Source: Chrysomallon squamiferum (taxonomy: Eukaryota > Animalia > Mollusca). Taken from it: DNA of 64,000 nt. The stretch spans positions 2,294,001 to 2,358,000 of the forward strand of contig CM022678.1 of assembly GCA_012295275.1 (NCBI GenBank), written 5' to 3'. How positions within the stretch are numbered: the stretch's first letter is position 1; every line of letters starts with the position of its first letter. The position numbers and the translations under genes were made by a program. Shown in pieces: positions 15,450-48,733 of this stretch. Below the pieces are notes generated by a model that did no database searches, had not been told where the DNA came from, and was given only the letters and a program-made list of their open reading frames with translations.

Positions 15450-17729
15450 AAATTTAGTTTTTTGAATTTGAAATTTTAATATGGAGTTTTTTCTCATTAA
15501 AATTATTTTTGACATACCAGGTTATATAAGATTGACAATAGCTATGTTCTAAATTTATCAACATAATTAAACGAAAATTTATTATTTATTAAATTACATC
15601 CCTAAGATAAATTAAATCAAAAGATAAATACTATAATACAATTTTGTAAATATTTGTGAGTGAAATGTTTATTATTAATGTTGTCGCTGTCGTTAATTTT
15701 TGAAGTGGACAAGTTTGAACTTGTTAATCACGATTTCCGGTGATTGAACAGAACCACGTGATTTAAAATGGAGAAATTGAGGCATTGATTTGAGGTATTG
15801 TTCGCTATTTTATAATTATGTTGTATGTCCAGAAATGAAAAGTTTACCAGCTTCATATGTTGTATTAAAATAACTAACTAAAAACAGTTACATATGAGCA
15901 GTTAGAGTTGAAAGTGTGGTCTACTGAAGAACTCAGTGTTAAATTCTCTAGGAGTTTAAACTGAACAAAAAAGAGTGACACCTGCCTTAAATTCATTGTA
16001 ATACTTGTCTGGAAAATGCTGAGTGATTAATAACACAAGTGTTACAAAGACATTACCGTAAACTGAGTTGTGAAAGAACCCACAGGCAACAACGAAATGT
16101 AAAAGTTGTGTTAATTGTCAAACTATTTTTTATCAAAGTATTTTTATCACCAGTCCCATCTAACACTGAAAATATAATCTCAAAGTTATGCAATTGCAGA
16201 GTTCATAAAATAGTTTAAGAAAGCTGATTCAGAGAGAAAATGTTACATTCAGTCTCTAGATTACATCTGTAGTTAAAGGGTTCAGTGAAAAGTAAACATT
16301 CAGTTGCCTCTAGCATCCAATTCATCTCTACAGTTAAATGTTAGATTTGTCAAATAATCAGTTGCTGTCATTTCCAGTGCTAAGCTGATTCCACTTCGTT
16401 TGTGTATATAAAATGTTTTGATGATACCCAAATGTGCTCCAATAATTCAAAAATAGACTCCTGACTGGCCAGGGCAGAATTGTTAAAGCCTTGTTTTACA
16501 GGTGGACTGTTAGTTGATGAAATTACTAATGACAGTGAGTGTAGTCAAGCTAATACCAAATACATTTGCTGGACATCACTTCTGTATCATTCCTTTTGTC
16601 TGCCATATTTGTGCTTCTGACGTTTTCCTTCTTGTCATATTTACTGTGAATGACTCAGCTGTTGAATACAGTGGAGGTAAATATTCATATCTGATGCATG
16701 AACATTCTGCAGTTTGGATAAATTATGGATACATATTCGCAAGGTTTCACTTATAGTTTTTGTATAACTTAATTTAGTACTGATATTGAGAAAACTGAGC
16801 ATATAACTTAGTAAAATTAGTCTGATATTATATATACATTTTTATTGTTTATATTACAATTTAGTGTGAGTATTGAGAAAACTAAGAATATAATTTACTG
16901 AAACTATTCTCATATTATCTGCTCATTTTCATTGTTTATTTAACTTAATTTAGTAATAATAATGAAAAATGTTTCAATATAAGTTATTGAAACTATTTTT
17001 ATATTGTTTATTTACTTAATTTAGTAAAAGCATTATTATGATATGGGAATTTACATTGTTTATAGAGCATAGTTTGATATTAGGGTTAACAAAACTAAGA
17101 ACATAACCAAGTAAAACTATTTTTATAATTATTAGATTTACATAATTTAATAGTGCAGTTCAGAAAAAATACTATAAAGGCTTTGTGATTATGATTATAC
17201 ACGAGAGGAGGTTTTTCAGTTTTTCCTAACAGAGATGTTTCTCTGTCAGACAGTATGACAAAATTGTTTATATCTTTATCAGTGCAGTATACCTCAGTTT
17301 ACTGTTTACTTTTTGATAAGAAATTCTAAATGGACAAAATTATTATTTGTGTGTAAAAATGTAGCTTTTCAATTTATTGTTTACTTTTTATTACCATTTG
17401 TAAATTGACTGAAACTGATAATAAATTAACAATTCAAACGGCTTTATATACAGTCTGACAGACGAAAACATCAAAAAGGAAAATAAAAAGATAAATGACC
17501 AGAAAAAATATAAACATTTACACACTAATTTCTCCCGACTATTATAATTATTGTGTTGACCATTATTTACTGTAATACTAAGGTCATATGTCACAGCATC
17601 TGTGCATAATTAGTTAACAATATTGAGAACATTGTATACAGCAATACTGTTTAGACAAATTGTATTCCACTGTATTCTGCCAAATCTCTACATACAGATA
17701 AAAGCATTTTTTTTTTTTTTTTTTTTCAG

Positions 17730-17778
17730 ACACTACTACTATGTTTAATAATTATGTCTAATTCTCAGGATTTTGCAG
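17730..17778 (+). CDS. Candidate start-codon exon (ATG 17754: MSNSQDFA+G) of the STAND-ANK gene
   Basis: Long poly-T tract + cag acceptor, ATG TCT AAT TCT CAG GAT TTT GCA G|gtaaaa, ending in phase 1 and compatible with the RHIM exons; homologous segments end at 18195, 18662 and about 18987. Confidence 0.42.
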
Positions 17779-17842
17779 GTAAAAACATTTTTGGAAATTA
17801 TGTATTGAAATTGTGAATTATTAAAAAAATATTAGACTGCAG

Positions 17843-17905
17843 TACAACAGCTAGCAGACACATCTCATTCCAGTTCTTTTCAGTTAGGAAATAACTATGT
17901 ATCTG
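17843..17905 (+). pseudogene. RHIM-like cassette exon 1 (xQQLADTSHSSSFQLGNNYVS), probable pseudo-exon
   Basis: 63 nt, homologous to siblings, FQLG-NN core; the donor reads ataaat instead of gtaagt and the polypyrimidine tract is lost. Confidence 0.55.
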
Positions 17906-18267
17906 ATAAATTTAATAGATAACAGAATACACAGTAGTCATTAGTAGTACTTTTCTGTTAGACATTGTGACCCGAACAACATAGATACATGCACAATATA
18001 CAATGTATATTTATCTCTACCTACATTTAGCACATACACAAAAACGTACATATACACACATATACATACAGAGACACATACACAAATATATTCAAACAGA
18101 GTCACAGTGTATGTGTGTTAAACTGCATGTTGATATATCTCTACACATAGATTATAAATATTTAATAATGTTATATAATTCTCAGAATTTTGCAGGTAAA
18201 AATATTTTTAGAAATTATGCATTGAAATTGTGAATTATAAAAATGTATTTAATCTGTTTCACAGCAG

Positions 18268-18330
18268 GACAAGAGCCAGCAGACATATCTAATTCTGGTT
18301 CTACTGAAATAAGCGGTAACACTATAAACC
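18268..18330 (+). CDS. RHIM-like cassette exon 2 (xQEPADISNSGSTEISGNTIN), intact splice sites, degenerate core
   Basis: ctgtttcacagcag| (NAGNAG acceptor) ...63 nt...AAACC|gtaagt; phase 1-1; homologous to siblings but the QIG core is replaced by EIS. Confidence 0.68.
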
Positions 18331-18734
18331 GTAAGTTAAAAACTGAAAGTTTTCTCTTCCCTACATGTTTAATAGATAACACAGTACATAGTAGTCATTA
18401 ATACTACTTTTCTGTCACACATTGTAACATGAACAACATAGAAACATGCACATAAATTCATAGACACATTGCATACATACCTGTACTTACATTTAGCACA
18501 TACACAAAATATCTACATGCAGACTTGGAGTAAACAGACACACACAAATATATTCAGACGCAGTGTATGTATGTTTAACTGCATGTTGTCATATCTCTAT
18601 ATCTAGATACAAAAAACTGCTAATATATTTAATAATGATGTCTAATTCTGAGAATTTTGCAGGTAAAAACATTTTCTGAAATTATCCATTGAAGGTGTGA
18701 ATTATAAAAATGTATTTTCTCTGTTTCACTCCAG

Positions 18735-18799
18735 TACAACAGTCAGCAAACCTAAGTCATGTAGTTGTTGCTCAAATAGGAAATAACTATGTAAGCGGG
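18735..18799 (+). CDS. RHIM-like cassette exon 3 (xQQSANLSHVVVAQIGNNYVSG); 65 nt, frame-shifting as assembled
   Basis: ttctctgtttcactccag|...AGCGGG|gtaagt; AQIG-NN core; 2 nt longer than sibling exons, within a G-run. Confidence 0.6.
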
Positions 18800-19059
18800 G
18801 TAAGTTAAAAACTGAAAGTTTTCTCTTCTCTACATGTTTAATAAATAACAGAATACACATCACAGTAGTCATTTTCAGAGAAACAGTGTATGTATGTTAA
18901 AGTGTATACTGTCATATGTCTACGTAAACATTGTTGTTGTTTTTTGTATTTCGAACACTGCTTTATTCAATTCTCAAAATTTTGCAGGTAAAAACATTTT
19001 TAGAAATTATGGATTGAAATTGTGAATTATAAAAATGTATTCACTCTCTTTCACTGCAG

Positions 19060-19122
19060 ATCATCAGCCAGCAAACGTATCTCATTCTTGCTCTTTACAA
19101 ATAGGAAATAAATATGTATACG
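19060..19122 (+). CDS. RHIM-like cassette exon 4 (xHQPANVSHSCSLQIGNKYVY), intact
   Basis: ctctctttcactgcag|...63 nt...TACG|gtaagt; phase 1-1; LQIG core followed by N, resembling the RHIM (I/V)Q(I/V/L)G tetrad. Confidence 0.78.
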
Positions 19123-20534
19123 GTAAGTTAAAAACTGAAAGTTTAATAGATAACAAAATAGATAATAGATGTTTAATAGGTAACAAATACATAGTAGTCA
19201 TTAGTACTTTTCTATCTGAACAACATAGAAACATGCACATTTTATATGTATTATTTCAAATTTATAAAAAAAAAACATATTTCTAAAAACGGTTACGGAA
19301 AAGAAAATGATTGTGCAAATATTTTTCGGATAACCCATTAATAGCTCAAATAGAATTTACACAATCACAGATACACAGACAGATAATAACATATAAACAA
19401 ATACACACACAGACATTCACACATACAAACACGTTCAGGCATAGCATAAGTTCTGACTGAGATTTTCTTCTTAAACTGTTAATATAACAACATGAATTAA
19501 ACATGACTATATGCCTGTCATTATTATTATCTGTAAATACTAAATATACTGCAGAGTATACGTAACAACAAGAACAACAACAACAACAACAACAGCAATA
19601 AACAGTGGGGCGTCTAACGCAGTTGCAAGGAATCTGTAATTAACAACGTTGTCACGTAACCAAATCAGAACCCTGCGACGGGCGTAACACTCTTCCCCAA
19701 AAAGAACACTAACCAACATACAGTCCTCCCTGTATCGGGTAGATAGATACCCGATTTGTTTCGGTTCTAAGGGTATTCAGGGAACAAGGCCATATATGTA
19801 TTTATATTTACTGTTAAATCATTAGAAACACAAAAACACAAGTTTAGATTTAAAGAATATTTGTATTATGTTATCTAACAATAGTTATTTACCGAGTAAG
19901 CTTACAATGCTTCCACTGCCAATTACAAAACGTTTTACGCCACAAAATCACTCTCACCACATACGTGAACATGTGGGAGATATTAAAGATGTTTAAACTA
20001 CCACATCCCAAGATGTATTTGAATATGCAACAGTATCAAATTAACGTACTGCTTAGTGGGATGTTGACGTAATAATCAGTTAATCATAACATCGGTTTTG
20101 ACCTCAAATTCCCACTATTCTCACCCATTGTTTTAGAGATAATAACCCACAGTTAACTTCGATCAGTCTGATCTCAGATTGCCAGCTGTTTTCCAAAATA
20201 ATGGTTATACTATTTCAATACTTAAACATATACATTTTATTATTTAGGAACGACCATATAGGTCGTCTTTTAAAATTCCTTCTCCAGATTGGTGCTGAGA
20301 CTGGTTTCAACTTCAGCAGACATGCAGACGCTAGTGGGTCCCCAAAACAACATTTCACAATAGCTAATATAATTTTTAAGGAAATATGACATCCATTACG
20401 TATTAAAGAGGAGACTGGTTGTCTCTGTCACACCAACAGTAACAATAAACAAGAACATTAGTGATAAGAAACAAGAGCAGTATTTCTGAAAATAGTAGGA
20501 GTAATTATATAAAGTAAATAACAAAGATGGAGTC

Positions 20535-21122
20535 AGGGCATTTTCCCACCAGATATTTCTCCCCATGACAGTTCCCCCGTCTACCTGTTTTACCTGTCAA
20601 ATATCCTTATAGTCTGAGTCATTAATAAGATTTTTGAAGCGGCCAAACATCGCTTAAATTTGGAAATAATAAAACAGGATAAATTATTATTATTATGTTT
20701 TTGTTTGTTTATCAACAAACTTAACTGTTTAAACTTCATGTTGTTCTAAAGTTCATCAACAAACTACAAGCATTATCCAAATACCTGGCTGTTTCTGGAT
20801 GTTCCGGAATTTTGTTTTTTTAAATAAACCCTCAATACAGTAACACTGCACCAGATACTGTTGTGTCTACACAGACATCACCCAGCGGCTTCAGACTATC
20901 ATTACAGACTACGGCAACAGAGACTGCCAGGACGTGCTCCGTGTTGCTGCACACAATCTTCACATGTAAAATGTTTCAAATAAACAATTTATGTCATATA
21001 CAATTATCTTTTTATCTCCAGATAATCTGTACAAGAGATCAGTTATCCTTGGCATGGTAGATAGGGGGGAAATTGTCACGGGAGAAATGACCTATGGTGA
21101 AATATCAAAGGGGAAATGCCCT
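20535..21122. mobile_element. Non-autonomous inverted-repeat element (MITE-like, about 590 bp) in the intron before the linker exon
   Basis: Left agggcattttccc..atttctcccc.tgaca.ttccccc.tctacc is the imperfect reverse complement of right ggtagatagggggga aattgtcacgggagaaat..ggggaaatgccct. Confidence 0.65.
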
Positions 21123-21270
21123 AGAATCAATAACGATCTAATAATAATAAATTACATATTTACTGTTTCATGAATAAAGTGCAGAGTAATTGTACAGATC
21201 ACTTTAATCATTCTCTTTTACCCAGCATCAATAATACAAAGTTAATTGTTTTATTTTTATATTATTTCAG

Positions 21271-21303
21271 TAACGTCTGATGGAAGAGGATTCAATATCA
21301 AAG
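21271..21303 (+). CDS. 33-nt phase 1-1 linker micro-exon (xTSDGRGFNIK) of the STAND-ANK gene
   Basis: ttttatattatttcag|TAACGTCTGATGGAAGAGGATTCAATATCAAAG|gtattt; length is a multiple of 3, no stop, and it joins the 21576 exon in frame (G+AG=Glu). Confidence 0.75.
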
Positions 21304-21575
21304 GTATTTTGTTATTTTATTTTTTATATTTTTTTTTAAAGTTTTCAAAGATTTTCATAAATAGATAGAAAATCATCTCGTTACATTTACTTCATCTACA
21401 ATTGTGACATCTTTCTATCATCATTAAATTCTGATGAACTAAAATTATGACAAAAAACTACTGCTTTATTTCAAAAACTTCACATCTGATGAACAGTCAA
21501 AAACTATTTACATTGTAAACTATGTTTTAAACGGTCAATAACAGATACTATTTTTTTGTTTATGTTGTGATACAG

Positions 21576-24500
21576 AGACAACCAGGCCAGTGTTAAACTC
21601 AGTTGACTGGAGTGTCTATGTTGAAACAAGAGCAGAGAAAAGAGGTTTGAGACTTTTGAAGACATATGGTGTTGTGATTGTAGTAGGAAGTCCAGGTTCA
21701 GGAAAGACAACTCTCGCTTTGAGTATGATGAGACAGATAGAAATAGAAGAAAAAAGAGAATCTTACTTGCTGACTCATTACAGTGAATTCAATGACATCT
21801 CTCTATCTGAAAATAAGAAATGTGTTGTTCTAATTGATGATATATTTGGTAAGACTAATCTTGTTTCAGATTTTATAGAGTTGTGGAAACAAAAATTTCC
21901 AAAGATATGGAGTCTTGCTCAGGATGGTTCTTTGAAATGTATTATTACTTTAAGAAAACAAATATATTCAGGAAATGAAACAAATTTGATAAATTTAGAT
22001 CTCTTTAATGAGAAACATATTCTTGACCTGCAGAGTCATGACTATTGTCTGGAGTATAATGAAAAGGAAGAAATTCTAAACAAATATCTTGAAGAAAAGG
22101 ATGTTCCAATGGATGAAACTGATAAAATGACTGTCATTAAAAGTTCATGTACAGAGTTAGGATTTCCTCAGGTGTGTGTGCATTATGTTAATTCAAGTGA
22201 TGCACAGAAAAGAGGAGTTGAGTTTTTTAAGAAACCTGTAGAATATCTTCAAAAAGAACTGAGAGATTTGAAAACTGTCGAATCTTCACAGATCAACTAC
22301 CTGGTTCTACTGCTGATTTTGTTCAAACAAGGCAGTCTCAGCATTGATTCACTGGATCCATCTCAAAATGGCTCTGACAGTGACATAATGAAATTAGTAA
22401 GACAACTAGAGCAATTCTGTCAAAGTCTAGAAAACACTGGTCTTACAGATATCAAGGAAACAGCTGCTGTTATGTGTGGTACCTATTTGAAGCGTTGTGA
22501 CAATAAATACACATTTATTCACCAGTCTGTGTTTGACTGTTTGTTTCTGATGTTTTCAGAGAAAGCAGCAGAGTTGCTAGAAGTGTGTCCTGTCTTCATG
22601 TTGTTAGAATATGTTGTGACGCCTGGAGTGTCTAACAAAACTCACATTACAATGACTGTGAGACCTGACTGCTTTGATGTTCTTGCTCGCAGATTTACTG
22701 ACCTGCTGGCGTCAGATAATTTCACGGAAATTATTTCACATCCATCACTGAAAGATGAAGAGTTTCTAAAATACCTCATAGAAGAAAAAAACTTTTATGG
22801 TAGGTTGTCTGAAATTTTACATCAAAGACTATCTGGAGAACATCAAAATCAATATACTTATATATCATTTGTACATGTAAACTCAACTGAAATTATTAAT
22901 TGTATTTCATATCTTGTTGACTATCATTCTAGGTATACATTTCCTATCAGTCTTGTGGGAAATGTTATAAATTCAACATCTGTTCCAAGTGAGTGTATCG
23001 TGAATAAACATAGAACATTGTCAAAATATTTCACATCAAAACTGTTTGAAACGGACTTAATAGACATGAAAAAAGAACTTTTGGATATTTCTTGTTTGTT
23101 TGGTGATGAAGATGTTGTGAGAATATTGCTAGAATCAGGTGTTGTTCCAACATTTGATACACTGACTGCAGCTGCTTGTTCAAAAACAGACAGTGCTACC
23201 GTACTCAAAGAACTGTTTCAGTGTAAAAAGGACATGCAACTGAATATGTATTCTCGCTTGTTACATACTTCAATACTTACAAGTAAAATGAACATTTCTT
23301 GTCTGTTGGCTGACATGATAAATAAAGAGGAAAACAACAGTGAAATAAAGGAGAAAGCTGTGAAACTGTTACTGGTTAGGTTCCATAGACATACAAATGC
23401 GATTGAGAAGTGTCTGGGAAAATCAGCGACGTTTAAAGTCGATGTAAGCCTTCTGTTTAAGAAACTGATTACCACTGATATAATAAACAAAATTAAAGGC
23501 ATTGCTATCGTTGCTGGTGGTCAGAACACTTCAACTGTTATAAAAGAAATAGTGAAACTGAAACCTGATTGTATAAATGATGAGAACAGAGATAAAGTAC
23601 TGTTAGAAGCAGCTATGTGGGGATGTGCTGACACAGTGAATTTTCTCATTGAGCAGAGACAAAATGATACAGATGAGAACAACTGGAAGAAAAGTGAAGT
23701 ACTGAAAGTAGCAGTGATGTTTAACAGTGTAGATGTTGTTCAGTGTCTACTTGATAAAGGAGCTGATCCTAATGTGAATGTAGCTGTTAACAAGAATTTG
23801 GTTGAGTCATTTAAACAGGAAAGTGAAGTGGAAATGTTGACTTCAGACACACCCCTCCACATTTCAGTTCTGCGTGGTGACTTAGATATAGTAAAATCAC
23901 TGATAAAGAGAAAAACTGATGTTAATGCAGTAAACAGTGAGGGAGAAACTCCACTTCATGAGACTGTAAAAGCAGTGAGGCACAGAAAGGAAATAGCTTT
24001 GTTGTTACTGCAAAATGGTGCTGATATTAACATAAGAGATACACGAAAAAATACAGCATTGCACATAGCATCTCAAATTGACATAGATCAGGTAAAAGAC
24101 ATAGTAAAGAAAGGCGTTGAAATAAATGTAACAAACACTGCAGGTGAAACTCCTCTTTTTATATCCTTAAACACCAACAGACGGGAAATAGCTTCGTACT
24201 TACTAGAACAAGGAGCTGATTTCACTTTAACAGATAATGATAAAAATTCTGTTTTACATTTAGCAGCTAAATATGGAAATATAGAAATTGTGACCGCACT
24301 GATTGAAAAAGGTTTTGATGTAAATACTAAAAACAGCCGAGGTGAAACTCCTCTTTTTGCAGCTCTTGTTTTCTGTTTGCGTGATACATCTCTGAATATT
24401 GAAAAATATAAAGTATTTTTCTATTTACTGCAAAATGGAGCTGATCCTAATTTAACAGACAATCATAGCAATTCTGTTTTACATTTAGCAGCTAAATATG

Positions 24501-27343
24501 GAAATCAAAAAATTGTGACAGCACTGACTGAAAAAGGTTGTGATGTAAACATTAGAAACAATAGAGGTGAAACTCCTCTTTCTACAGCTCTTACTTACAA
24601 TGAACATTATCCTTCTCTGAAGAATGAAAACTGTAAAGTAGCTTTGTATTTATTGGGATATGGAGCTGATCCTAATTTAACAGACAATGATAACAATTCT
24701 GTTTTACACCTAGCAGCTGGATTTGGAAATATAGAAATTGTGAAAGCACTGATTGAAAAAGGTTTTCATGTAAATACTAAAAACAGTCGAGGTGAAACTC
24801 CTCTTTTTAAAGCTGTATTCTCTCGTAATAGCAAAGTAATTTTGTATTTACTCAGACATGGAGCTGATATTAATATAGCAGACAGTGATAATAATTCTAT
24901 TTTGCACGAAGCAGCTAAATATGGGATTATAGAATTTGTGACCACACTGATTGAAAAAGGTCTTGATGTAAATATCAAAAACAGCCGAGGTGAAAGTCCT
25001 CTTTTTACAGCTCTTACTCACAATCAACTTCATCTATCTCTGAACAATGCAAAATGTAAAGTAGCTTTGCATTTACTGGAACATGGAGCTGATCCTAATT
25101 TGACAGACAAGGATAGCAATTCTATTTTACACCTTGCAGCTGAATATGGAAATATAGAAATTGTGAAAGCACTGATTGAAAAAGGTGTTGATGTAAATAT
25201 TAAAAACAGCCGAAATCGGACACCTGTTTTTATAGCTGTTGAGGCTAAACAGACAAAAATAGTTTTGTATTTACTGGAACACGAAGCTCATCCTAATTTA
25301 ACAGAGTATGATAATATTTCTGTTTTTCACGTAGCAGCTATAACTGGAAATATAGAACTTATGACAGCACTGATTGAGAAAGGTTTTGATATAAATATTA
25401 GAAGCAGCCGAGGTCATACTCCTCTTTTTCTCACTCTTATTGAATGTAATCTATTTCTGATGGATGAAAAATGTAAAGTATTTTTCTATTTACTGGACCA
25501 TGGAGCTGATCCTAATATGAGAGACAATGATAACTATTCTATTTTACACGTAGTCGCTGGACATGGAAATCTTAAAATGGTGACTGCACTGGTTGAAAAA
25601 GGTGTTGATGTAAATATTAGAAACAAACATGGTGAAACTCCTATTTTAATATCACTTACTCACTGTGAACTTGATCCATCTCAAAGGTTTGAAAAATGTA
25701 AAATAGTTTTGTATTTACTGGAACATGGAGCTGATCCTGATTTAACAGACAATGATAACAGTTCAGTTTTACACAAAGCAGCTGCGCTTGGAAATCTGGA
25801 AATTGTGTCTGCACTGATCAGAAAAGGTGCTGATGTGAATATGATAAACAGACAAGGTCTCACTCCTCTTTTTTACCCTCTTAGTGAATGTAAACATGAT
25901 CTATCACTGATGGATAAAAAATGTAAAGTATTTATGTATTTACTGGAACATGGAGCTGATCCTAATTTAACAGACAATGATAACAATTCTGTTTTACACG
26001 TAGCAGTTCAAGCTGGAAATATAGAAATTGTGAAAGCACTGATTGAAAAAGGTGTTGATGTGAATATTAAAAACAACCAAGGTAAAACTCCTCTTTTTAT
26101 AGCTCTTGCTTCCTGTGTGCATGATACATCTCTGAATATTGAAAAATATAAAGTATTTTTCTATTTATTGCAAAATGGAGCTGATCCTAATTTAACAGAA
26201 AAAGATAACTATTCTGTTCTACACGTAGCAGCTGAATTTGGAAATATAGAAATTGTGAAAGCACTGACTGAGAAAGGTTGTGATGTAAATATTAAAAACA
26301 GCCAAGGTCAAACCCCTCTTTTTGCAGCTGTTGCTTTCTGTCAGCGTGATCCATCTCTGAATATTGAAGAAAATAGAGTATTTTTCTATTTACTGCAAAT
26401 TGGAGCTGATCCTAATTTAACAGACAATCATAACAATTCTGTTTTACACCTAGGAGCTGCATTTGGAAATATAGAAATTGTGAAAGCACTGATTGAGAAA
26501 GGTTGTGATGTAAATATTAAAAACAGCCAAGGTCAAACTCCTCTTTTTGCAGCTCTTGTTTTCTGTTTGCGTGATACATCTCTGAATATTGAAAAATATA
26601 AAGTATTTTTCTATTTACTGCAAAATGGAGCTGATCCTAATTTAACAGACAATCATAGCAATTCTGTTTTACATTTAGCAGCTAAATATGGAAATCAAAA
26701 AATTGTGACAGCACTGACTGAAAAAGGTTGTGATGTAAACATTAGAAACAATAGAGGTGAAACTCCTCTTTCTACAGCTCTTACTTACAATGAACATTAT
26801 CCTTCTCTGAAGAATGAAAACTGTAAAGTAGCTTTGTATTTATTGGGATATGGAGCTGATCCTAATTTAACAGACAATGATAACAATTCTGTTTTACACC
26901 TAGCAGCTGGATTTGGAAATATAGAAATTGTAACAACACTGGTTGAAAAAGGTCTAGATATAAATATTAAAAACAGTCTAGGTGAAACTCCTCTTTTTAC
27001 TGCTGTTAAGTGTGCACATTGCATACTAATTTTGTATTTACTACAGTGTGAACCTTTGAAGAAAGTAAATTTCTATATACAACGACATCAAGCTTTGAAG
27101 AATGTAGTTTTGTATTTGCTGGAACATGGAGCTGATCCTAATTTAAGAGACAATGATAACAATTCTGTTTTACACCTAGCAATAAAACATGGAAATACGG
27201 AAGTTGTGACAGCACTGATTGACAAAGGTGCTGATGTAAATATTATTCTTGATAAAGCAAAGAGTTGTAACAAAAGGGGAATTGTTTTACGTTTACTGAG
27301 AATGGTGCTAAATATATTAACAGATAGATACATTTTGTTATAA
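21576..27343 (+). CDS. Terminal coding exon of an NLR-like STAND NTPase (nSTAND3-type) + ankyrin-repeat protein (about 1920 aa in this exon)
   Basis: Uninterrupted 1917-aa ORF. Walker A VVIVVGSPGSGKTT, Walker B CVVLIDDIFG, IITLR sensor-like strand, GFP and YTFIHQSV (winged-helix/MHD-like) motifs, then about 25-30 ANK repeats (GETPL..A / SVLHLAA..GN.EIV..L.EKG.DVN). The track's GTG start is not the real start: an acceptor (tttgtttatgttgtgatacag|AG ACA ACC AGG CCA GTG) at 21575/21576 enters the ORF in phase 1. Confidence 0.93.
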
Positions 27344-29877
27344 GTCTGCACAGACTCTCACTTTTAAATGCAAGATTACCTGGTGAGAATATTTTAAAAG
27401 TTTGCTGAAATAATATTTTTGCATGAAACTGATGTTCATAATCAACGGAAAAATTGTTCTGAAGAAATCTGGATTTTGTTTGTAATTTTTCTGGTACAAA
27501 GTTGATCATAATTTTCTACTTCATCCAGAAACAATTCCTGATGTAGTTTTATTCTGAACTGCTTCATTTGTGTCTATTTTTACTGTAATCTTGTATCAGT
27601 GTTAAGTAATATGTACAGATTTTTTACTTTTCAGTTGAGAAGTATAAAATAACCGATACATTCGCCAGAGCAAATTTTCAAATTAAAGTCAATATGAGTT
27701 TGCGTAACTATATTGCTGTGTAGTCCGGTGTTTATCTAGATACTGTAAACTGTTGTTTCTACTAAGATATTGCATTACTGTATTGTGCACTCTGCTTTTC
27801 CTATTGAAATATTGTATATTGTGGTTTTGTTTATTTTCAAATATTGTATTACCATATTGTATAATCTGTTTTATATATTTAAATATTGTATTTATGTATG
27901 GTGCAGTTTTTATTTCTATACAAATATTGTATTAATGTATGGTATTCAAACATTGTATTAATGTATTGTACAGAGTATTGTATCTATTCAAATTGTGTAT
28001 TAATGTATGATATAATGTTTGATTCTATTCAAATATTACATTGCCATATTGTATCATCTATTCTATCTATTCAAATATTTTGAATAATATATGGCATAGT
28101 TTATGTTTCTATAAAACTTTTGCATAACCATATTCCATAGTATTTTGTATCTATTCAAATATTGTCTTAGTTGTACAGTTTATTTTTGTTTCTATTCAGA
28201 TATTTTGCTGTCTGTGGTATTTGTACGTAACAAGAAATAATATTGTATGAAATTTTAATAATGATTTTTACTTTTCACTGAAACACTTTCTGGATTTATT
28301 GCACAGTTCAATTTTAAAAAAATGTTCAGATAAGTTAGGGTTCCAGTAATCATTCAATAATACTAATACTGATGTTAAATTTCATCAGGTTATTCAGTTA
28401 GTGAAAAGTCAAACAGTTTTTTAATCAGATTTGTTATTCATGATGACTTGATTATTACTTGTGTTAGACTGTTCATGTGTGAAAATATCTGTTGAACAGG
28501 ATGTTATAATTAAAGTTGTATTTTAATGTTGAGTGTAAAATTTTTAAAATATATTTTTCATTTTACAAAATTGTTCTGTATTGTTTTACTGTGTTTATAC
28601 TACATGAATTTGTATATTGTTAAGGTAAAGGTTTTTTGTGGGTTTTTTGTTACATTATAAAATAGTTCTGTACTATAAATCTTTTTTGCTATGTTTAAAA
28701 TAACTAAACTAATATTATGATGTTTAATTTAAGATATTTTATATGTTTTTGTGTTATAAAATGTTTGCTTTCTCATTATTTATTCTTAATAATAAATTTG
28801 TATTTTGAAGTAAAACATATATATATCTATATATATATATAGATATATATATGTAAGTGGCCGGGTGTGTACAGCACCCTCACACAAAAACTACACAAGT
28901 TTGATTTTGATTACATCTTTAATTTCTCTGCCTGAATGAATAACATGATACACAATAGTATAACATTATAAATGATAGTATCGTAGTTATACTACAGAGA
29001 ATTGGCCCAAACGTCTTTTTCCCTTGCCAGATTTTGTCTTTTCTCTTGAACTCTCTTTCACCACAGTCACACAGGTAACATTTCACATCCCTGAACTATA
29101 CTGGCAGACTATTGCTATCCTGGGTTCCTTAAAAAAGAACCAGTGACAGTGTTTACCATACATCAACGTCCCACGTGTGTTGAAGGAATTTCCCAAATAC
29201 TTTACCTCTATGCAAGGAGAAATAAACCTCAGTAATGTTAATGGTGTTTATGTATCTTCAGATTATGCTTGGGTGCTTTTGGTTCAGTCCCTCACATACA
29301 TACGTACATGCATGCATACATACATACATACATACATATATACATACATACCTACGTACACACATACATACATAATACATACATATATATATTTGACTAA
29401 ATTATCATTAGAAAATAGAAAATAATAAAATTAATAAAGCATATGTAAGTTTTCACTGTGCATACATTTGGTCTACATTTGTATAAAACAGTGCACAGTA
29501 ATGTAATTAGTATTCCCATACATGTATTTCTCTTTGACATATAGCAAAGATAATTATTATAATGACTACATTATTGTATTTAATAATTATAAAATAGTGA
29601 ATAATTAATAAAGTATATTTGAATTTAAATTAGGAATATTTTTTGTTAATAATATTTTGATTTACCTTTTTTATAATTATATAATATTAAATAATTAATA
29701 AAGTTAAATTAAATTAGGAATATTTGCAGTTAGTAATGTTTTTATTTACCTGTTTGACATTGAACTATGATTGAGCAGTAAAACAGATTTAATCTGTGTG
29801 ATAACATTTTAATACTACCGTTATTCTAGTTGTAAATAATTTGATTCAAATCAATGTTTTATGATGAATTATTATTA

Positions 29878-31874: not shown

Positions 31875-33520
31875 GTAAGTAAATTGTGGAATGTTCTAAC
31901 AAAACATATTTTATCATGTTGATTTCCTCATACTTGGTAATAAGTAAATTATTCAAGGGTAATATTTGACATTTCAGTGTATATTCTCAAGTTTTGGTTA
32001 GTGTATAATAAAAGTAATGTTTAGAATGTCTGAATGTATATTCTCTAGGTTTTGGGTGGAATATAATAATATAATATTTGGCATGTTTCAATGTATTTTC
32101 TCTGGAGTTAGGGTAGAGTATGATAAATGTAATGTTTGGTATATTTCAGTGTATATTCTCTAGGTTTGCGTGGAGTAATATAAATGTAATGTTTGGTATG
32201 TTTCAATGTATTTTCTCTGGAGTTAGGGTAGAGTATGATAAATGTAATGTTTGGTATATTTCAGTGTATATTCTCTAGGTTTGCGTGGAGTAATATAAAT
32301 GTAATGTTTGGTATGTTTCAATGTATTTTCTCTGGAGTTAGGGTAGAGTATGATAAATGTAATGTTTGGTATATTTCAGTGTATATTCTCTAGGTTTGCG
32401 TGGAGTAATATAAATGTAATGTTTGGTATGTTTCAGTGTATATTCTCTAGGTTGGGGTAGAGTATGATAAATGTAATGTTTGGTAGATTTCAGTGTATAT
32501 TCTCTAGGTTTGGGGTGGAGTATGATAAATGTTAAGTTTGGTATATCACAGCACCTCGGCAATCAGGTCTTTCTCCTGTTTTTATATCTGCTTCCATATT
32601 CCTTGCGAAAAAAACCATAACAAAATTCAAATAAGAAAATGTTTCCCAAAATGTTGGCTGTTGACAGTACATCATGCAGTAGGTTCTTATAAGCAGAGTT
32701 CACTGTAACATCTGTAATCTGCATAAAAACAATCTTAATTCTTTTGTCTGTAAAAACCCCCCGTCACTTTCTGGAATCTTTCACAAGTAAATTGTGGAAT
32801 GTTCTAACAAAACATATTTTATCATGTTGATTTCCTCATACTTGATAATAAGTAAATTATTCATGTGTAATATTTGACGTTTCAGTGTATATTCTCTAGT
32901 TTTGGTTAGTGTATAATAAAAGTAATGTTTAGAATGTCTGAATGTATATTCTCTAGGTTTTGGGTGGAATATAATAATATAATATTTGGCATGTTTCAAT
33001 GTATTTTCTCTGGAGTTAGGGTAGAGTATCATAAATATAATGTTTGGTATATTTCAGTGTATATTCTCCAGGTTGGGATCGAGTATGATAAATGTAATGT
33101 TTGGTATATTTCAGTGTATATTCTCTAGGTTTGCGTGAAGTAATATAAATGTAATGTTTGGTATGTTTCAGTGTATATTCTCTAGGTTGGGGTAGAGTAT
33201 GATAAATGTAATGTTTGGTAGATTTCAGTGTATATTCTCTAGGTTTGGGGTGGAGTATGATAAATGTTAAGTTTGGTATATCACAGCACCTCAGCAATCA
33301 GGTCTTTCTCCTGTTTTTATATCTGCTTCCATATTCCTTGCGAAAAAAACCATAACAAAATTCAAATAAGAAAATGTTTCCCAAAATGTTGGCTGTTGAC
33401 AGTACATCATGCAGTAGGTTCTTATAAGCAGAGTTCACTGTAACATCTGTAATCTGCATAAAAACAATCTTAATTATTTTGTCTGTAAAAAAAACCCAGC
33501 ACATTCTGGAATCTTTCACA
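31875..33520. repeat. Two arrays of the same 57-59-bp satellite inside a local tandem duplication (31875-32785 ~ 32785-33520)
   Basis: Same unit as 44520-45890; the flanking unique sequence (agtaaattgtggaatgttctaac..., gcaatcaggtctttctcc...) is repeated twice. Confidence 0.9.
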
Positions 33521-33782
33521 AGAAAATATAATCTCTTATGTTTGTGTAAAAACTTAAGTGTCAAAAAAAAGAAGGAAAAAGACAACAGCAGTATAATATG
33601 TTTAGTCTGTTTTTATTTTGGTTTCAGTGTGCATTAAGATTAAATAATCATATGAAATACTACATATCTACACACAGTGACAGAAATTAAAATACTCTTT
33701 AACACACACCTACATAAAAATACATTTAAAAACTCATAAAATGCTCGCAGACATAATAATAATAATATAAATAATAATAAAA

Positions 33783-33816
<34 letters not shown>

Positions 33817-33825
33817 GTAATAGTA

Positions 33826-33864
<39 letters not shown>

Positions 33865-34615
33865 GTAATAATAATAATAATAACAACAATAATAATAATA
33901 ATAATAATATATGTACTCCACATCTGGTACTTTCTACACCTAGAGTAACACACTTTAATTATCAACACAAACACAAACAAAAAATAGATTAAATACTTGC
34001 TAAGTTAGATGTATGTTAAAATGCTAACTAACTTTTACTCAACAAAATACATTAAAACTATCACAGACATAGACCAAGCAACCACTAAGAATATCTTCAT
34101 TAACCTTGATGAAGAATTTAACAAAATTTCTCTTTATTAATTGAAATTATTGATAGGAAGAAGGAAATATAAATAATTGTGTTATGGAATGATTCCTGTC
34201 ATGTTTTTTCAGTGGGTTGAGAGTGTTTGGCTTATGTGCTGTATAGTGTGTTACAAAGAAAGCAAGCTATAATAGCTTTTTTTAAATTATTTTTTTATTT
34301 TTTTGTTTTATTGTTTTATAAAATCAGGTAGCAATACAGTGAAAATAAATTCAGTGGGTCTTGACAGCTATTTGCAAAGAAAGAAATTATTGTTATTGCT
34401 ATTATGATTATTATTATTATTATTATACTTGCGTTATTTCACTTTCATTCTGTATGGCTGTTTCCCCCTTACACTTCAGTGTGTGTGTGTGTGTGTGTGT
34501 GTTCTAATTTGTATATAGAATGAACTGAACAATAAGTTAGTATATATGTACGTAAGTATGCATGCATGTATATATGTATGTAGGTATGTATGTATTGGTA
34601 TTTGTGTATGTCTCT

Positions 34616-34701
<86 letters not shown>

Positions 34702-35158
34702 GAAAGTAACCAGTTTTTTTGTCCATGTTTTCATTCATGAAGGGGAAGTAACTTTACCTGTTGCTACAGAGGATTTCAGTTAATAAACAGGTATTATGTT
34801 TGAAATAAAAATAATAATAAAAAGAAAATAAAAAGTTAAAAAGTTAAAATAAAAATTATATATATAATAATAAAAGCATTGTATGACTAAAGGGAAAAAA
34901 TAATTTTATTTAATATTAACTGTTTCTAGTATCATAGACCGAGAAATACAGGTTGCTTTTTCAGGTCAATGTAAGATATTTCATGTAAATACTGAAGACA
35001 GTTACAGAAACATTTACAAGCTACAAGCAGAGTGATGAATAAAACCTGGACCCAACCTGGGACTTGATTTGAAAATGTGTCTTGTTTCGGTACATTCAAC
35101 AGTTATAATACTAAAGTATATTTTAGAATTTTGTTTGAAACAATAAATAAATAAACAA

Positions 35159-35195
<37 letters not shown>

Positions 35196-36115
35196 ATAAA
35201 AACATTTTATTTAATATTAAGAGTATCTTGTATCAGAGACAGAGAAATACAAGTTGATTGTTCAAGTCATTGTAAGGTATTTGATGTAATTATTGAAAAC
35301 AGTTATACTAATTTATAAACTGCAACCAGAATGAAAAGTCATTTTGAATAAAACCTAGACACAACCTCAGTCTAGTTTCTAAAATTAAACATAACATTTA
35401 AGTATATTTTAGAATTTTAACTAACAGTCATGTTCTTATTGTTTTATTATAGTGAAGTATGTATACAGGTATGTCTCTTTATTTGCTTGTGTGTGTGTGT
35501 GTATTTCTATATGTATGCATATGTTAGTAATTTAAACAAATACAATATTTACTTATTTATAATTCAGTTTAATCCATCTTTAGACTTTAGATGAGTGCAT
35601 ATTACTAAACATTGTACATATTTTATTTCATTTTATTATTATTATTATTAGAGGTAGTAGTAGTAGTAGTAGTATTGACGTTTTATTTATTTACTACTAC
35701 TACTACTACTACAAATAAAATAAAAGTTAGAAGAAATTCATTATTTAGAGAATTTTATAACACAGAATGGATGTAAATCAATATGTTGAAATATTAACAC
35801 AGGAAGAATTAAATGTGTATCACTAAATGCTATGAACGATAAAGAATCTGATAAACTTTGCACTAACACGTCACTAAATATTTCTATTAATATCTAACAG
35901 ATTTCCTCTTCATAACACGTGTATGACTGATCCTAGTTTTGTGTACGTTTAAATATTTTATTTAAAAGTCTGGGCTGTGTGATAAATTATTGCATTTGGA
36001 TGTGTGTGTATATCGGTGTGAGTGTAATAATATTGTTACCGGTGAAGGCAGAAAAAATAAATTATCTATCGTTATTCTTTTCGTTTTCTTTTCTTTTTGA
36101 TTAATTATTGTTAGG

Positions 36116-36159
<44 letters not shown>

Positions 36160-37674
36160 TGTTTATTTATTTATTTATTTTTCTCATTTTGTCATTTTCA
36201 GGAAGAAACGGTGTTAGAATTGAATTTCATTTAATCTTATATTAAAGGTGCTTTGATTTTGATAGTGGAATTATACTAAAGAAAACGGATATTATCTAAA
36301 AGAAGGAGCTCTCCTTTTAAGAGGAAGTTTAATGAACTTTTTGTAATGGCTGCTTTCATGTGGTAAAACGCTTTGTGTAGTACAAATCGTTATCGAATGA
36401 TCATGTCAAATGACACGAGAGGAATAACTGGTGCTGAAGTTACATTAAACTGTCTGAATTCGACAGAGCTGCTATGATGGCTGATGCAGTGATAGTTAAA
36501 AACACAGCTCTATGCAATAATGAAAATCGTTGCTCATTTATTTTATTAAATATTAAAAATAATGTTATATTTCTTTCAATTTTCAAAAGTTAAATACCAG
36601 TGTAAGTGTTCAAGAAGATGGACGTAAAGCTGAAGAGGTTTGACCTTTGTGTAAGTTAATTTATTTATATTATTTTTAATTGTGTATAAATACATTTTTT
36701 GGTTTCCAGTTCGTAGTTGGAAATGAACTATAAAGTCATCAAAAGTTAGAAATCTGAACTAGATTCATATACTTTTGAAAACAAATCAAGAACTACTTAA
36801 AATTGAAAAATATTTGTAAATTGTCCAGTATTTTTACTTATTTAAGTCATTAATAAATCCGGAATTATTTTTATTTGTTTGCATATTACTAAAAGTTTTG
36901 TTAATATACCTGTCCTTGTCATACTATTTTCCTGGGCCGTAGACGATGCACATAAACTATTTTTTATTATTAATTTAAAAAACAAGATACGCCACTGCAT
37001 TAAGGCTGTGAGTTTTCTCTTTCACTACTTTTGTTTCTGACAACACTGTATAATAATAATAATAATAATAATATAAAAAAAAAATTATGAATTTTCTTTT
37101 TTGGCTGAGAAAAACATGCATTTTTTTTATTATTTGTGTCCACACTAAATAAAAAAAAAGAAATACAAGCCTAAATGATTTCCTGTGCTTCAAAGTAGTT
37201 GTATTACAGGTTTGTTGTTAAACTGTAGATTTTTAATACTAACAAGAATTCAGAATATATTTTCTATAATTTCAAGTGATTATTATGTTTTTCCATAAAA
37301 TGTAGGTTAATTTAATACTTAGAAGTATTCAGAATATATTTTGTATAATTCTAGATGACTAATGTTTTTCCATGAAATGTGGGTAAGTTAGTACTAACAA
37401 TATACTGAAACGAGACTGTGCATATCTCCCAATCTCACCTTTTATTTAATTTAATTTATTTATTTAATGTTAAATTCATTTTATTATCCAAAGTGAAGAT
37501 TCGAACATCTTTTCCTTTATATATTAGTTCTATTAAATAACTGAATACATTTTTTCTAATATATTTAGAATTTTTTGCTTTAAATAATAATTTCAAAATA
37601 AATTATTATCATTTCATTTTTAGACAGAGAAAACCCTCTGTTTCTGTTAAAACCAATTTATTCTTTATTTACAG

Positions 37675-44519: not shown

Positions 44520-45890
44520 GTCATGTAATGTTTGACATGTTTTAGTGCATATTCTGTAGGTTTGGGTAGAGTATGATAAATGTAATATTTGTTATGTTTC
44601 AATGGATTTTCTTGGGAATTGGGTTAGTGTGTGATACATTTAATGTTTGGTATATTTCAGTGTATATTCTCTAGGTTGGGGTGGAGTATGATAAATGTAA
44701 TGTTTGGTATATTTCAGTGTATATTCTCTAGGTTGGGGTGGAGAATGATAAATGTAATGTTTGGTATGTTTCAGTGAATATTCTCTAGGTTGGGTTGCAA
44801 TTTGATAAATGTAATGTTTGGTATATTTCAGTGTATATTCTCTAGGTTGGGTAGAGTATGATAAGTGTAATGTTTGGTATATTTCAGTGAATATTCTCTA
44901 GATTGGGTTGCAGTTTGATAAATGTAATGTTTGGTATGTTTCAGTGTGTATGGCTAGGTTGGGGTGGAGTGATAAATGTAATATTTGGTATGTTTCAGTG
45001 TATATTCTCTAGGTTGGGTAGAGTATGATAAATGTAATGTTAGGTATATTTCAGTGTATATTCTCTAGGTTGGGTAGAGTATGATAAATGTAATGTTTGG
45101 TATATTTCAGTGTATATTCTCTAGGTTGGGGTAGAGTATGATAAATGTAATGTTTGGTATATTTCAGTGTACATTCTCTAGGTTGGGGTGGAGTATGATA
45201 AATGCAATGTTTGGTATATTTCAATGTGTATGGTCTAGGTTGGGGTGGAGTGATAAATGTAATGTTTCGTATATTTCAGTGTACATTCTCTAGGTTGGGG
45301 TGGATAAATGTAATGTTTGGTATGTTTCAGTGTGTATGGTCTAGGTTGGGGTGGAGTGATAAATGTAATGTTTGGTATATTTCAGTGTATATTCTCTAGG
45401 TTGGGGTGGAGTATGATAAATGTAATGTTTGGTATATTTCAGTGTATAATCTCTAGGTTGGGGTAGAGTATGATAAATGTAATGTTTGGTATATTTCAGT
45501 GTATATTCTCTAGGTTTGGGGTAGAGTATGATAAATGTAATGTTTGGTATATTTCAGTGTATATTCTCTAGGTTGGGGTAGAGAATTATAAATGTAATGT
45601 TTGGTATATTTCAGTGTATATTCTCTAGGTTGGGGTAGAGTATGATAAATGTAATGTTTGGTATATTTCAATGTATAATCTCTAGGTTGAGGTAGAGTAT
45701 GATAAATGTAATGTTTGGTATATTTCAGTGTATATTCTCTAGGTTGGGGTAGAGTATGATAAATGTAATGTTTGGTATATTTCAATGTATAATCTCTAGG
45801 TTGGGGTAGAGTATGATAAATGTAATGTTTGGTATATTTCAGTGTATAATCTCTAGGTTGGGGTATGATAAATGTAATGTTTGGTATGTT
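44520..45890. repeat. 57-bp tandem satellite, about 24 copies
   Basis: Unit tatgataaatgtaatgtttggtatatttcagtgtatattctctaggttggggtagag. Confidence 0.95.
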
Positions 45891-46017
45891 TCAAGCTGGT
45901 TGCTCTGGGACTAAAGTGGGAATGATGATTCCAAACAGCAGCATAGAAAACAACATATTCATCAATCCAAGCATATTGACTCTGTTGGTAAATAAATAAA
46001 TAATATATATATATATA

Positions 46018-46077
<60 letters not shown>

Positions 46078-46782
46078 GTTTTTATTACATATATATACTC
46101 AGTCAATATATATTAAATAAAATGTTCTTATTACATATATATATATGTAATATATATATATATATATATATATTACATATATATATATGTAATAAGAACA
46201 TTTTATTAAATATATATTGACTGAGTTGAAGGTAAAGTTTCTGTGAGTTTTCTGTTACTTGTAGCCAGGTATTTCAGACTGATGTCACTCACAGTACAGC
46301 ACCTCAGCAATCAGGTCTTTCTCCTGTTTTTATATCTGCTTCCACATTCCTTGCGAAAAACCCCAAAACAAAATTAAAATAAGAAAATGTTTCCCGAAAT
46401 GTTGGCTGTTGACAGTACATTAGGTTGTTATAAACAGAGTTCACTGTAACATCTGTAATCTGCATAAAAACAATCTTAATTATTTTGTCTGTAGAATAAA
46501 AAGCACACTTTCTGGAATCTTTCACAAGAAAATATAATCTCTTATGTTTGTGTAAAAACTTGAATCTCTTTCAAGTGTCAAAAAAAGAAGAAAAAAGACA
46601 ACAACAGTATAATATATTTAGTCTGTTTTTACTTTGGTTTCAGTGTGCATTAAGATTAAATAATTATATGAAATACTACATATCTACACACAATAACATA
46701 AATTAAAATACTCTTTGACACACACCTACACAATAATACATTCAAAAACCCTACACAATAACCCATTAAAATGCTCGCAGAC

Positions 46783-46821
<39 letters not shown>

Positions 46822-46844
46822 GTAATAGTAATAATAATAATAAT

Positions 46845-46881
<37 letters not shown>

Positions 46882-46884
46882 GTA

Positions 46885-46932
<48 letters not shown>

Positions 46933-47398
46933 TATGTACTCTGCATCTGGTACTTTCTACATCTAGAGTAACACACTTTAATTATCAACACAAACACACA
47001 AACAAAAGTACATTAAATACTTGCTGAGTCTGATGTATGTTAAAATGCTAACAAACGTTTACTCAACAAAATACATTAAAACTATCACAGACATAAACAA
47101 AGCAACCACTAAGAATATCTTTATTAACCTTGATGAAGAATTTAACAAAATTTCTGTTTATGAATTGAAAATATTGAAGGAAATATAAATAATTCTGTTA
47201 TGTTTTTTCATTGATTGAGAGTGTTTGGCTTATGTGATGTATAGTGTGTTACAAAGAAAGAAAACTATAATTGCTTTTTTTAAATTATTTTTTTATTTTT
47301 TTATTTTATTCTTTTATAAAATCAGGTAGCAATATAGTGAAAATAAATTCTGCTGGTCTTGACAGCTATTGCGCAAAGAAAGAAATTGTTGTTATTGC

Positions 47399-47432
<34 letters not shown>

Positions 47433-48701
47433 GTTATTATTATTATACTTGAGTTATTATACTTTTTTTATTTTCTCATTCTGTATGGCTGTTTCCCCCT
47501 CACACTTCAGTGTGTATGCATGTGTGTGTGTGTGTGTGTCTGCGCATGTGTGTATGTGTGAGTTTCTATTCTAATATAAAATGAACTATATATTAAGTAT
47601 ATATGTTCATAAGTATGCAAGCATGTATGTATATATATGTATGTATGTATGCCTGTATCTATATTTGTGTTTCTCTCTCTCTCTCTCTGTATGTGTGTAT
47701 GTGTGTGTATGGATGTTACTGTGTGTATGTGTAAAGAAAGTGACCATGTTTTCATTCATGAAGGGGAAGTAACTTTACTTTTGCTACAGAGGATTTCAGT
47801 TAATAAACAGGTATTATGTTTGAAATAAAAATAATAATAAAAAGAAAATTAAAAAAAAAGTTAAAAAGTTAAAATAAAAGATTATATATAAAATAATAAA
47901 AGCATTGTATGTCTAAATGGAAAAATAATTTTATTTAATATTAGCTGTTTCTGGTATCATAGACAGAGAAATACAGACTGTTTTTTCAGGTCAATGCAAG
48001 GTATTTCATATAAATATTGAAGACAGTTAAATAAACATAAAAATTTACAAACTACAAGCAGAGTGATGAATAAAACCTGGACCCAACCTGGGACTTGATT
48101 TGAAAACTCGTCTTGTTCTGTACGTTCTACAGCTATAATACTAAAGGATATTTTAGAATTTTGTTTGAAACAATAAATAAATAAATAAACAAACAAACAA
48201 ATGTGTGTTACTGTGTGTGTGAGTGTGTGTGTGTGTCTGATAAAAACATTTTATTTAATATTAAGAGTATCTTGTATCAGAGACAGAGAAATACAAGTTG
48301 ATTGTTCAAGTCATTGTAAGGTATTTGATGTAAATATTGAAAACAGAAATATAAAAATTTACAAACTGCAACCAGAGCGAAAAGTCAATTTGAATAAAAC
48401 CTAGACACAACCTCAGTCTAGTTTTGAAAATCAAACATAACATTTAAGTATATTTTAGAATTTTAACTAACAGTTATGTTCTTATTGTTTTATTATAGTG
48501 AAGTATGTATACAGGTATGTCTCTTTATTTGCTTGTGTGTGTGTGTATTTCTATATGTATGTATATGTTAGTAATTTAAACAAATACAATATTTACTTAT
48601 TTATAATTCAGTTTAATCCATCTTTAGACTTTAGGTGAGTGCATATTATTATACATTGTACATATTTTATTTCATTTTATTATTATTATTATTATTATTA
48701 T

Positions 48702-48733
<32 letters not shown>

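Follow-up and report, generated by a model that had tools for sequence, protein, structure and literature searches.

A candidate nSTAND3-ankyrin receptor gene with a RHIM-like micro-exon in the mollusc Chrysomallon squamiferum

The window analyzed here is a stretch of 64,000 nucleotides (nt) from the mollusc Chrysomallon squamiferum (NCBI GenBank assembly GCA_012295275.1, contig CM022678.1, positions 2,294,001 to 2,358,000 of the forward strand), and all coordinates below are positions within it. Between 17730 and 27343 it carries a candidate receptor gene in which several micro-exons, one of them an intact exon with a motif resembling a RIP homotypic interaction motif (RHIM), lie upstream of a single large exon, here called exon F, that encodes a STAND-type nucleoside triphosphatase (NTPase) and an ankyrin array. 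An earlier reading of the same DNA, made from the sequence alone (the original prediction), had proposed a receptor that signals by amyloid formation. The parts of the gene are as follows, with the candidate start exon designated S, the motif exons ("cassettes") A to D and a linker exon E.

17730-17778, plus strand: candidate start exon S, with an ATG at 17754, 8 codons and a phase-1 donor
17843-17922, plus strand: cassette A, core FQLG at 17878-17889, without a donor, reading through to a stop at 17922
18265-18330, plus strand: cassette B, 66 nt, phase 1-1, frame-keeping, motif-like
18735-18799, plus strand: cassette C, core AQIG at 18770-18781, 65 nt, frame-breaking
19060-19122, plus strand: cassette D, core LQIG at 19095-19106, 63 nt, phase 1-1, the sole intact RHIM-like exon
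21271-21303, plus strand: linker micro-exon E, 33 nt, phase 1-1
21576-27343, plus strand: exon F, with the STAND NTPase module, helical repeats, ankyrin array and stop codon
21617-22093, plus strand: nSTAND3 domain (Pfam PF20720), amino acids 14 to 172 of F
22094-22597, plus strand: helical domain with a GxP motif (22160-22168) and winged-helix region with F-x-H (22514-22531)
23939-27340, plus strand: ankyrin array of alternating 33- and 42-amino-acid repeats with high internal identity, the last repeat degenerate

The NTPase and ankyrin exon

Exon F lies within a single stop-free frame that spans 21542-27343 of the plus strand. It begins at 21576, directly after an AG acceptor, and is entered in phase 1; no methionine precedes its Walker A motif, confirming that the exon has no ATG of its own. 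Pfam matched PF20720 with 85.6 bits against a curated cut-off of 27.2 (E value of 3.7e-24), and the Walker A (21686-21709) and Walker B (21824-21841) motifs are both intact. The near-invariant columns G195, F196, P197, F313, and H315 of an alignment of 21 sequences are present in F; the names GxP and F-x-H follow usage for STAND proteins.

We modeled amino acids 1 to 650 of F from the 21-sequence alignment (mean predicted local distance difference test score [pLDDT] of 81). The top Foldseek rows for this model are STAND proteins (SAMD9, Avs5, NLRP9, Avs4, and MalT). In a wider structural search (VIA), Avs5 was matched with a Z score of 12.1 and a root mean square deviation of 3.5 over 180 aligned residues, level with DnaA-type AAA+ domains, and amino acids 417 to 650 of the model matched ankyrin repeats with a Z score of 11.4. 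By this model, the module encoded by F has a STAND fold, and by its Pfam match it belongs to the nSTAND3 clade. Compared with PDB sequences, the NTPase query returned only weak P-loop rows. In the Pfam scan of F, NACHT (24.2 bits; cut-off, 26.7) and NB-ARC (15.2 bits; cut-off, 23.5) both fell below their cut-offs, which rules out an NLR in the strict sense; the product is NLR-like. The STAND-ankyrin anatomy that had been proposed is thus borne out by PF20720, by the STAND-like Foldseek rows, and by the 31 ankyrin stretches that Pfam matched in F.

Within the ankyrin array, 24345-24741 and 26535-26931 form an exact 397-nt duplicate, and 12 repeats of one type share a mean DNA identity of 82.5%. 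Across 24212-27042, the repeats are otherwise fixed and vary at positions 8, 11, 12, and 26, and the internal duplication is recent. Ankyrin-like remnants seem to run on beyond the stop in other frames (27240-27500), which may be due to a misassembly or to a frameshift that occurred recently.

Upstream micro-exons and their expression

Four tandem units, A to D, occupy 17730-19240, and every unit has its own acceptor and a micro-exon close to 63 nt long. RHIM cassettes had been predicted in the plural. Three xQ(I/L)G-N motifs are indeed present (A at 17878, C at 18770, and D at 19095), and one usable xQ(I/L)G cassette, D, remains in this copy, because A has no donor (AT replaces the GT kept by the other three units), C exits in phase 0 and breaks the frame, and the core of B is T-E-I-S, without Q or G. 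Splicing of all four cassettes in series was considered and is ruled out by the missing donor of A and the frame of C. Exons D and E have GT-AG ends and symmetric phase 1, and D, E, and F join into one open frame, as had been claimed for the phase-1 micro-exons upstream of the NTPase.

The candidate start exon S has a poly-T acceptor and a CAG/GTAAAA donor, which recurs at 18195, 18662, and 18987; a second ATG in S (17741) is out of frame and terminates within the exon. We built eight splice models from S: the four that omit C all extend through F to its end; all four that include C stop early. S does not appear in any of the RNA joints listed (15 of 49; see below). A further 33-nt exon candidate (16502-16534) is symmetric in phase 1, stays open in frame, and is flanked by good splice sites.

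No death-fold, CARD, or TIR exon was found upstream of F: 66 of 67 plus-strand frames of at least 45 amino acids in window positions 1 to 21600, with low-complexity frames dropped, had no Pfam match at the curated cut-off, in agreement with the claim that no folded effector precedes the NTPase. A tblastn search of the window with the N termini of 16 relatives likewise yielded no upstream exon. A strict splice-site scan of the plus strand over the 64 kb, which is insensitive in that it missed B and E, returned five open symmetric phase-1 exons, two of which are motif cassettes (D and 59075-59152). The motif pattern occurs five times in six frames compared with 0.89 times in shuffles (maximum of 5 among 100), a count to be read with the pattern having been defined after the cassettes were seen and with A, C, and D being duplicates of each other. 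The cassette exons are 60 to 75% alike, the 110 nt that precede them 76 to 89% alike (higher than the exons in all six pairs). The 100 nt that follow them are 69 to 81% alike (higher than the exons in 5 of 6 pairs), in pairs that are not mutually independent. Codon-position counts for A, C, and D cover 18 codons, too few for a selection test.

To these data we added four sets of RNA contigs from one study, in which sampled words were recovered at 16 to 20%; contigs were placed on 17735-23800 at 82% likeness. Between 389 and 558 contigs fit per run, mostly 82 to 99% alike, and the gene therefore belongs to a large family of expressed paralogues; 39 to 93 contigs per run are at least 99% alike somewhere on this interval. 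In all four runs, contigs of paralogues extend beyond the 5' edge of F into E-like letters, and the RNA consensus labeled X2 matches E at 26 of 30 letters (next best window position, 20). One contig (RNA label X2) joins a stretch ending at 17903, which is A-like and covers the Q-L-G-N core, to 21581; this joint has 43 letters on its shorter side, and the letters in between are undefined. Another (RNA label X1) carries a B-like exon followed by a second B-like exon. These two contigs show that the family splices cassette-type exons to each other and onto the NTPase exon.

The junctions proposed for this gene were thus recovered in kind, as an E-like linker and one motif cassette joined to the NTPase exon in paralogue contigs; 19122>21271 and 21303>21576 themselves are not among the 15 joints listed of 49, in data that can show presence but not absence. 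The same limit applies to the bin that holds D (18953-19155), which is covered by no contig in any of the four runs. Loose ends ahead of F have median lengths of up to 155 to 226 letters, with 30 displayed, and no transcript-derived protein of this animal is among the protein-search matches. An unspliced contig (RNA label X4) contains a further cassette variant with an I-V-F-G core, flanked by copies of the cassette's downstream intron.

A second gene, the motif, and mollusc relatives

A second family member is represented in the window by its 5' exons (58473-63820, plus strand), here called X1, P1, P2, X2, and P3, all of which exit in phase 1.

58473-58690, plus strand: exon X1
59075-59152, plus strand: P1, RHIM-like cassette
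60244-60324, plus strand: P2
62968-63174, plus strand: exon X2
63758-63820, plus strand: P3, RHIM-like cassette

Exon X1, at 58473, contains an ATG and ends in a scrap of ankyrin sequence. The 5' exons of this copy are motif exons or low-complexity, including Ser/Glu-rich spacers, and no NTPase exon for it lies within the window. We saw no effector gene in the window, only these further motif exons of the paralogue. The regions 15786-17387 and 56713-58802 are collinear, and 730 nt with the second gene's ATG exon are absent from the first. After the last cassette of both genes lies a common 1-kb intron segment (19243-20210 and 61095-62059; 76% alike). Elsewhere, the window contains a 57-bp minisatellite in two blocks together with a 3.8-kb segmental duplicate at 86% (31972-33281, 44523-45893, 33283-37054, and 46296-50126).

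The motif cores are FQLG in A, AQIG in C, LQIG in D, VVLG in P1, and CQFG in P3. That of D falls outside the mammalian consensus tetrad (V/I)-Q-(V/I/L/C)-G; LQIG is a natural RIPK3 core of amphibians and fish and is functional in cells, according to the available text of PMC12119088. Deep mutagenesis of RIPK1 and RIPK3, as far as the accessible part of the report goes, found aliphatic residues at positions -8, -6, 0, and +2 to be essential (10.64898/2026.02.19.706818). At these positions D has A, V, L, and I, fitting three of the four places with Ala at the other, and its residues at +1 and +3 are Q and G; P1, with I, V, V, and L, fits at four of four and has G at +3 but no Q.

We next asked which N termini occur in related proteins. 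A search over 50%-identity representatives returned 1,099 proteins at an E value of ≤0.001, of which the best 150 were used. Of the relatives with a named source, proteins of Gigantopelta aegis are the nearest (42 to 47% identity; nearest overall, 42 to 52%), which makes a gastropod origin probable. For 144 of these 150 the NTPase start could be matched; 56 of them have 15 or fewer amino acids ahead of the NTPase and 88 have more; as foreseen in the original prediction, gene models often begin at the NTPase exon.

The full register was found in 7 of the 88 longer N termini (2.55 in shuffles; P = 0.014) and the partial register in 15 of 88 (8.3 in shuffles; P = 0.016; 11.5 in body windows), while a strict core was found in 2 of 88 (P = 0.12) and a wide core in 7 of 88 (P = 0.25). 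The motif is clear in proteins of Gigantopelta, of scallops, of Solemya, and of freshwater mussels. A profile built from 17 motifs of the relatives only ranked D 3rd, B 4th, C 10th, and A 45th among the 38,836 stop-free 19-mers of the window, and the paralogue cassettes P1 and P3 8th and 123rd; with another background, D ranks first. When columns not used in picking were applied to the 78 rule-fitting 19-mers, P1 ranked 1st and D 2nd to 3rd, with medians of 15 and 14 under shuffled training. In the reverse test, a profile of five window cassettes detected 11 of 82 N termini of relatives at P ≤ 0.05 (4.1 expected; body control, 1 of 82).

We built a tree of 83 NTPase regions with FastTree, excluding 62 of the 144 relatives for N termini under 25 amino acids. 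In it, F groups with seven Gigantopelta proteins (support of 1.0), and motif-bearing proteins are dispersed over several clades. No Pfam effector domain is listed ahead of the NTPase in these seven proteins. Among the families listed for other members (the first 25 of 42 and of 47), N-terminal domains include HEPN (7 of 44), DED (4 of 44), SAM (2 of 44), caspase (1 of 34), Death (1 of 34), and also CARD. Because other members carry such domains in this position, the motif, judged by sequence comparison, takes the place of the effector domain in this family. One relative (P0137) has both a DED and the motif. Another (P0005) falls in the ESM Atlas with mollusc and bacterial nSTAND3 clusters. Among abalone (Haliotis) relatives (P0165, P0205, P0206, and P0209), one begins with two tandem beta-motif repeats, and at another Haliotis locus, annotated short isoforms end just after the motif, without the NTPase.

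A proposed receptor and its known counterparts

At a probability of roughly 55%, we favor the interpretation that this nSTAND3-ankyrin gene, with a short N terminus built from phase-1 exons and a RHIM-like motif replacing a folded effector, encodes an immune receptor that would signal through amyloid templating. The direct basis is provided by the domains, the exon phases, the expressed paralogue family, and one paralogue contig with a motif-to-NTPase splice. With the candidate start exon, the gene has the architecture of an amyloid signalosome, namely, an N terminus before the NTPase, no folded effector, and a short motif.

In STAND proteins, ligand binding by the repeats frees a switch and leads to oligomerization. 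By analogy with these proteins, including Avs5, a ligand would bind the fast-changing ankyrin array and free the switch, and the NTPase would oligomerize. As in RHIM and fungal systems, the oligomer would crowd the motifs, located 17 residues ahead of exon F, and could nucleate a cross-beta stack. This stack might then template a RHIM-bearing adaptor. The likeliest candidate is a kinase resembling RIPK1 that would feed into NF-kappaB or caspase signaling, since NF-kappaB activation by zebra mussel RIPK1 requires its conserved RHIM. Duplication and divergence of motif exons may let paralogues switch signaling partner.

Several results weigh against this interpretation. Pfam, the search proposed for the spliced protein, matched nSTAND3 and Ank but assigned no family to any of the four cassettes (A to D) or the three paralogue cassettes, no Pfam family named RHIM was found in any of 16 relatives scanned at full length, and two PDB sequence searches, with a cassette profile (two unrelated weak rows) and with P1 (no rows), returned no RIPK or HET-s chain; the RHIM profile queries were 20 to 26 amino acids long, HMMER filters discard weak matches, and these scans had no positive control. 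A comparison of cassette D with the ESM Atlas gave no usable match and is uninformative on absence or novelty. The enrichment in relatives is modest, with four patterns tried and uncorrected P values; among the seven full-register rows, two are doubtful and two are related to each other. With the core columns removed, D drops to rank 1,338 to 1,760 of 38,836, and the reverse test is passed by only one of the seven nearest Gigantopelta proteins. In this copy, A and C are two broken cassettes of four, and no counterpart of the neighboring paralogue's ATG exon lies between 17197 and 17294. Because the contigs are mostly 82 to 99% alike, the RNA evidence concerns paralogues more than this copy, and the motif-to-NTPase joint comes from one contig of one study at a likeness setting prone to false joints. 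Of the amyloid-motif receptor first proposed, a motif class common to the N termini of mollusc relatives is supported; the RHIM membership is borne out by no profile match in these scans.

The best-surviving alternative, which we nonetheless consider unlikely, is a sensor without an effector of its own, whose motif is a non-amyloid docking strand or linker and whose signal passes through STAND-STAND coassembly with paralogues that act as helpers and bear Death, DED, CARD, caspase, or HEPN domains. Sensor-helper NLR pairs exist, as in NAIP-NLRC4 and in plants, and effector-bearing nSTAND3 proteins do occur in molluscs; the lack of a RHIM profile match, the high diversity of the motifs, and the minority of N termini that pass our tests would all be consistent with such a model. 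A plain linker, however, would not be expected to keep the alternating aliphatic RHIM register and the Gly, on a dedicated exon and in several mollusc clades. Slightly less probable again is that this copy is a decaying paralogue, stripped of the ancestral start exon and of most of its cassettes, in which case the family may still work as proposed. The missing donor of A, the frame of C, the lack of a counterpart to the paralogue's ATG exon, and the degenerate last ankyrin repeat point in this direction, but no stop interrupts the 1,921 codons of F, splicing from S reaches its end in four models, both Walker motifs are intact, as are the near-invariant STAND columns, and every run contains contigs at least 99% alike somewhere on the locus. 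Although some relatives, such as P0137, combine a DED with the motif and loose ends extend ahead of F, we regard as very improbable a true N terminus that is a folded effector on exons beyond the window or too short to detect, with the cassettes as minor linker exons, given that there is no such exon in the 21 kb upstream (66 of 67 frames without a match), none listed for the nearest clade, and only low-complexity or motif exons at the 5' end of the second copy.

Beyond the amyloid-templating receptor proposed for this gene, a broader picture is possible, which we put forward tentatively and with distinctly less confidence. Molluscs may have a large, fast-evolving family of nSTAND3-ankyrin immune receptors that signal through amyloid motifs, in which a symmetric motif exon has been duplicated, diversified faster than the introns, and splice-swapped, giving several parallel amyloid channels in addition to canonical RHIM; where a dead cassette is read through, a free motif peptide could arise and serve as a decoy. 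If true, the interpretation would account for signaling by snail and bivalve ankyrin-STAND proteins that lack a folded effector. An expanded family with diverse RHIM-like exons would also offer many natural receptor-side motifs for yeast, fungal, and NF-kappaB assays. Annotation hides the motif because it sits on exons of about 60 nt. The mollusc nSTAND3-ankyrin proteins of Gigantopelta, Haliotis, scallops, Solemya, unionids, and Mytilus belong to the same family as F and are annotated as uncharacterized or ankyrin-like, and among the matches listed, no database name mentions an N-terminal motif.

No paper on this mollusc family was found in a search that left out most subscription papers and supplements, nor did it find literature on RHIM together with nSTAND3. 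The nSTAND3 literature that was found concerns, in its accessible parts, bacteria, fungi, and a virus, and available passages on novel STAND NTPases in molluscs name nSTAND1 and nSTAND2 only. A 2021 review from the groups behind the discovery of amyloid signaling in fungi and bacteria, in the portion available, asks whether RHIM is the sole signaling amyloid of animals (PMC7889193). NLR-linked amyloid motifs have been counted in fungi, bacteria, and archaea (PMC12261475, available text), and one animal case has been predicted (PMC4262963, available text).

That case is the amphioxus protein BF82280, a predicted RHIM-NACHT-repeat protein that Kajava et al. likened to NWD2 in 2014 (PMC4262963), and it is an animal precedent that the original prediction missed; the view that the architecture has no such precedent is rejected. 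According to the accessible part of that paper, BF82280 resembles the present gene in combining, in an animal, a RHIM-like motif with a STAND NTPase and repeats, and Branchiostoma RHIM proteins have their RHIM at the usual site of death-fold domains, as here. BF82280 differs in being a chordate protein with NACHT, whereas this gene is from a mollusc and has nSTAND3; exon modularity, such family expansion, and a functional assay are not reported for it in the same available text.

The fungal NWD2/HET-S and PNT1/HELLP systems share with this gene a short N-terminal motif, a STAND NTPase, and C-terminal high-identity repeats, and their PP motif has a G-phi-Q-phi-G signature in common with RHIM (PMC7889193 and PMC12881547, as far as available); cassette D has Ser in place of the first Gly. 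Repeats with high internal conservation and few variable positions, which the ankyrin array of F resembles, are described for diversifying fungal NLR sensors (PMC13449251, accessible part). Unlike this gene, the fungal systems, in the texts available, use NACHT or NB-ARC and have an adjacent effector gene with a matching motif, of which none was seen in our window. Bacterial BASS3/Bell-NLR pairs also place a RHIM-like motif, there of 20 to 25 amino acids, at the N terminus of an NLR-like receptor but are intronless prokaryotic two-gene clusters with a Bell effector (Dyrka et al., 10.1101/2020.01.06.895854, available text). Avs5, a SIR2-nSTAND3-repeat antiphage receptor (10.1101/2025.07.08.663546, accessible part), shares PF20720 with F and is, with SAMD9, the best structural neighbor of our model; PDB titles of Avs5 structures mention a helical filament. 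Avs5 and SAMD9 carry folded enzymatic effectors, in contrast to the short motif found here. If the proposed mechanism is true, the mollusc family would be an animal counterpart of the amyloid signalosomes of fungal and bacterial NLRs. The design itself is not new for animals; what is likely new is its occurrence on nSTAND3-ankyrin proteins, in molluscs, and with an exon-modular motif.

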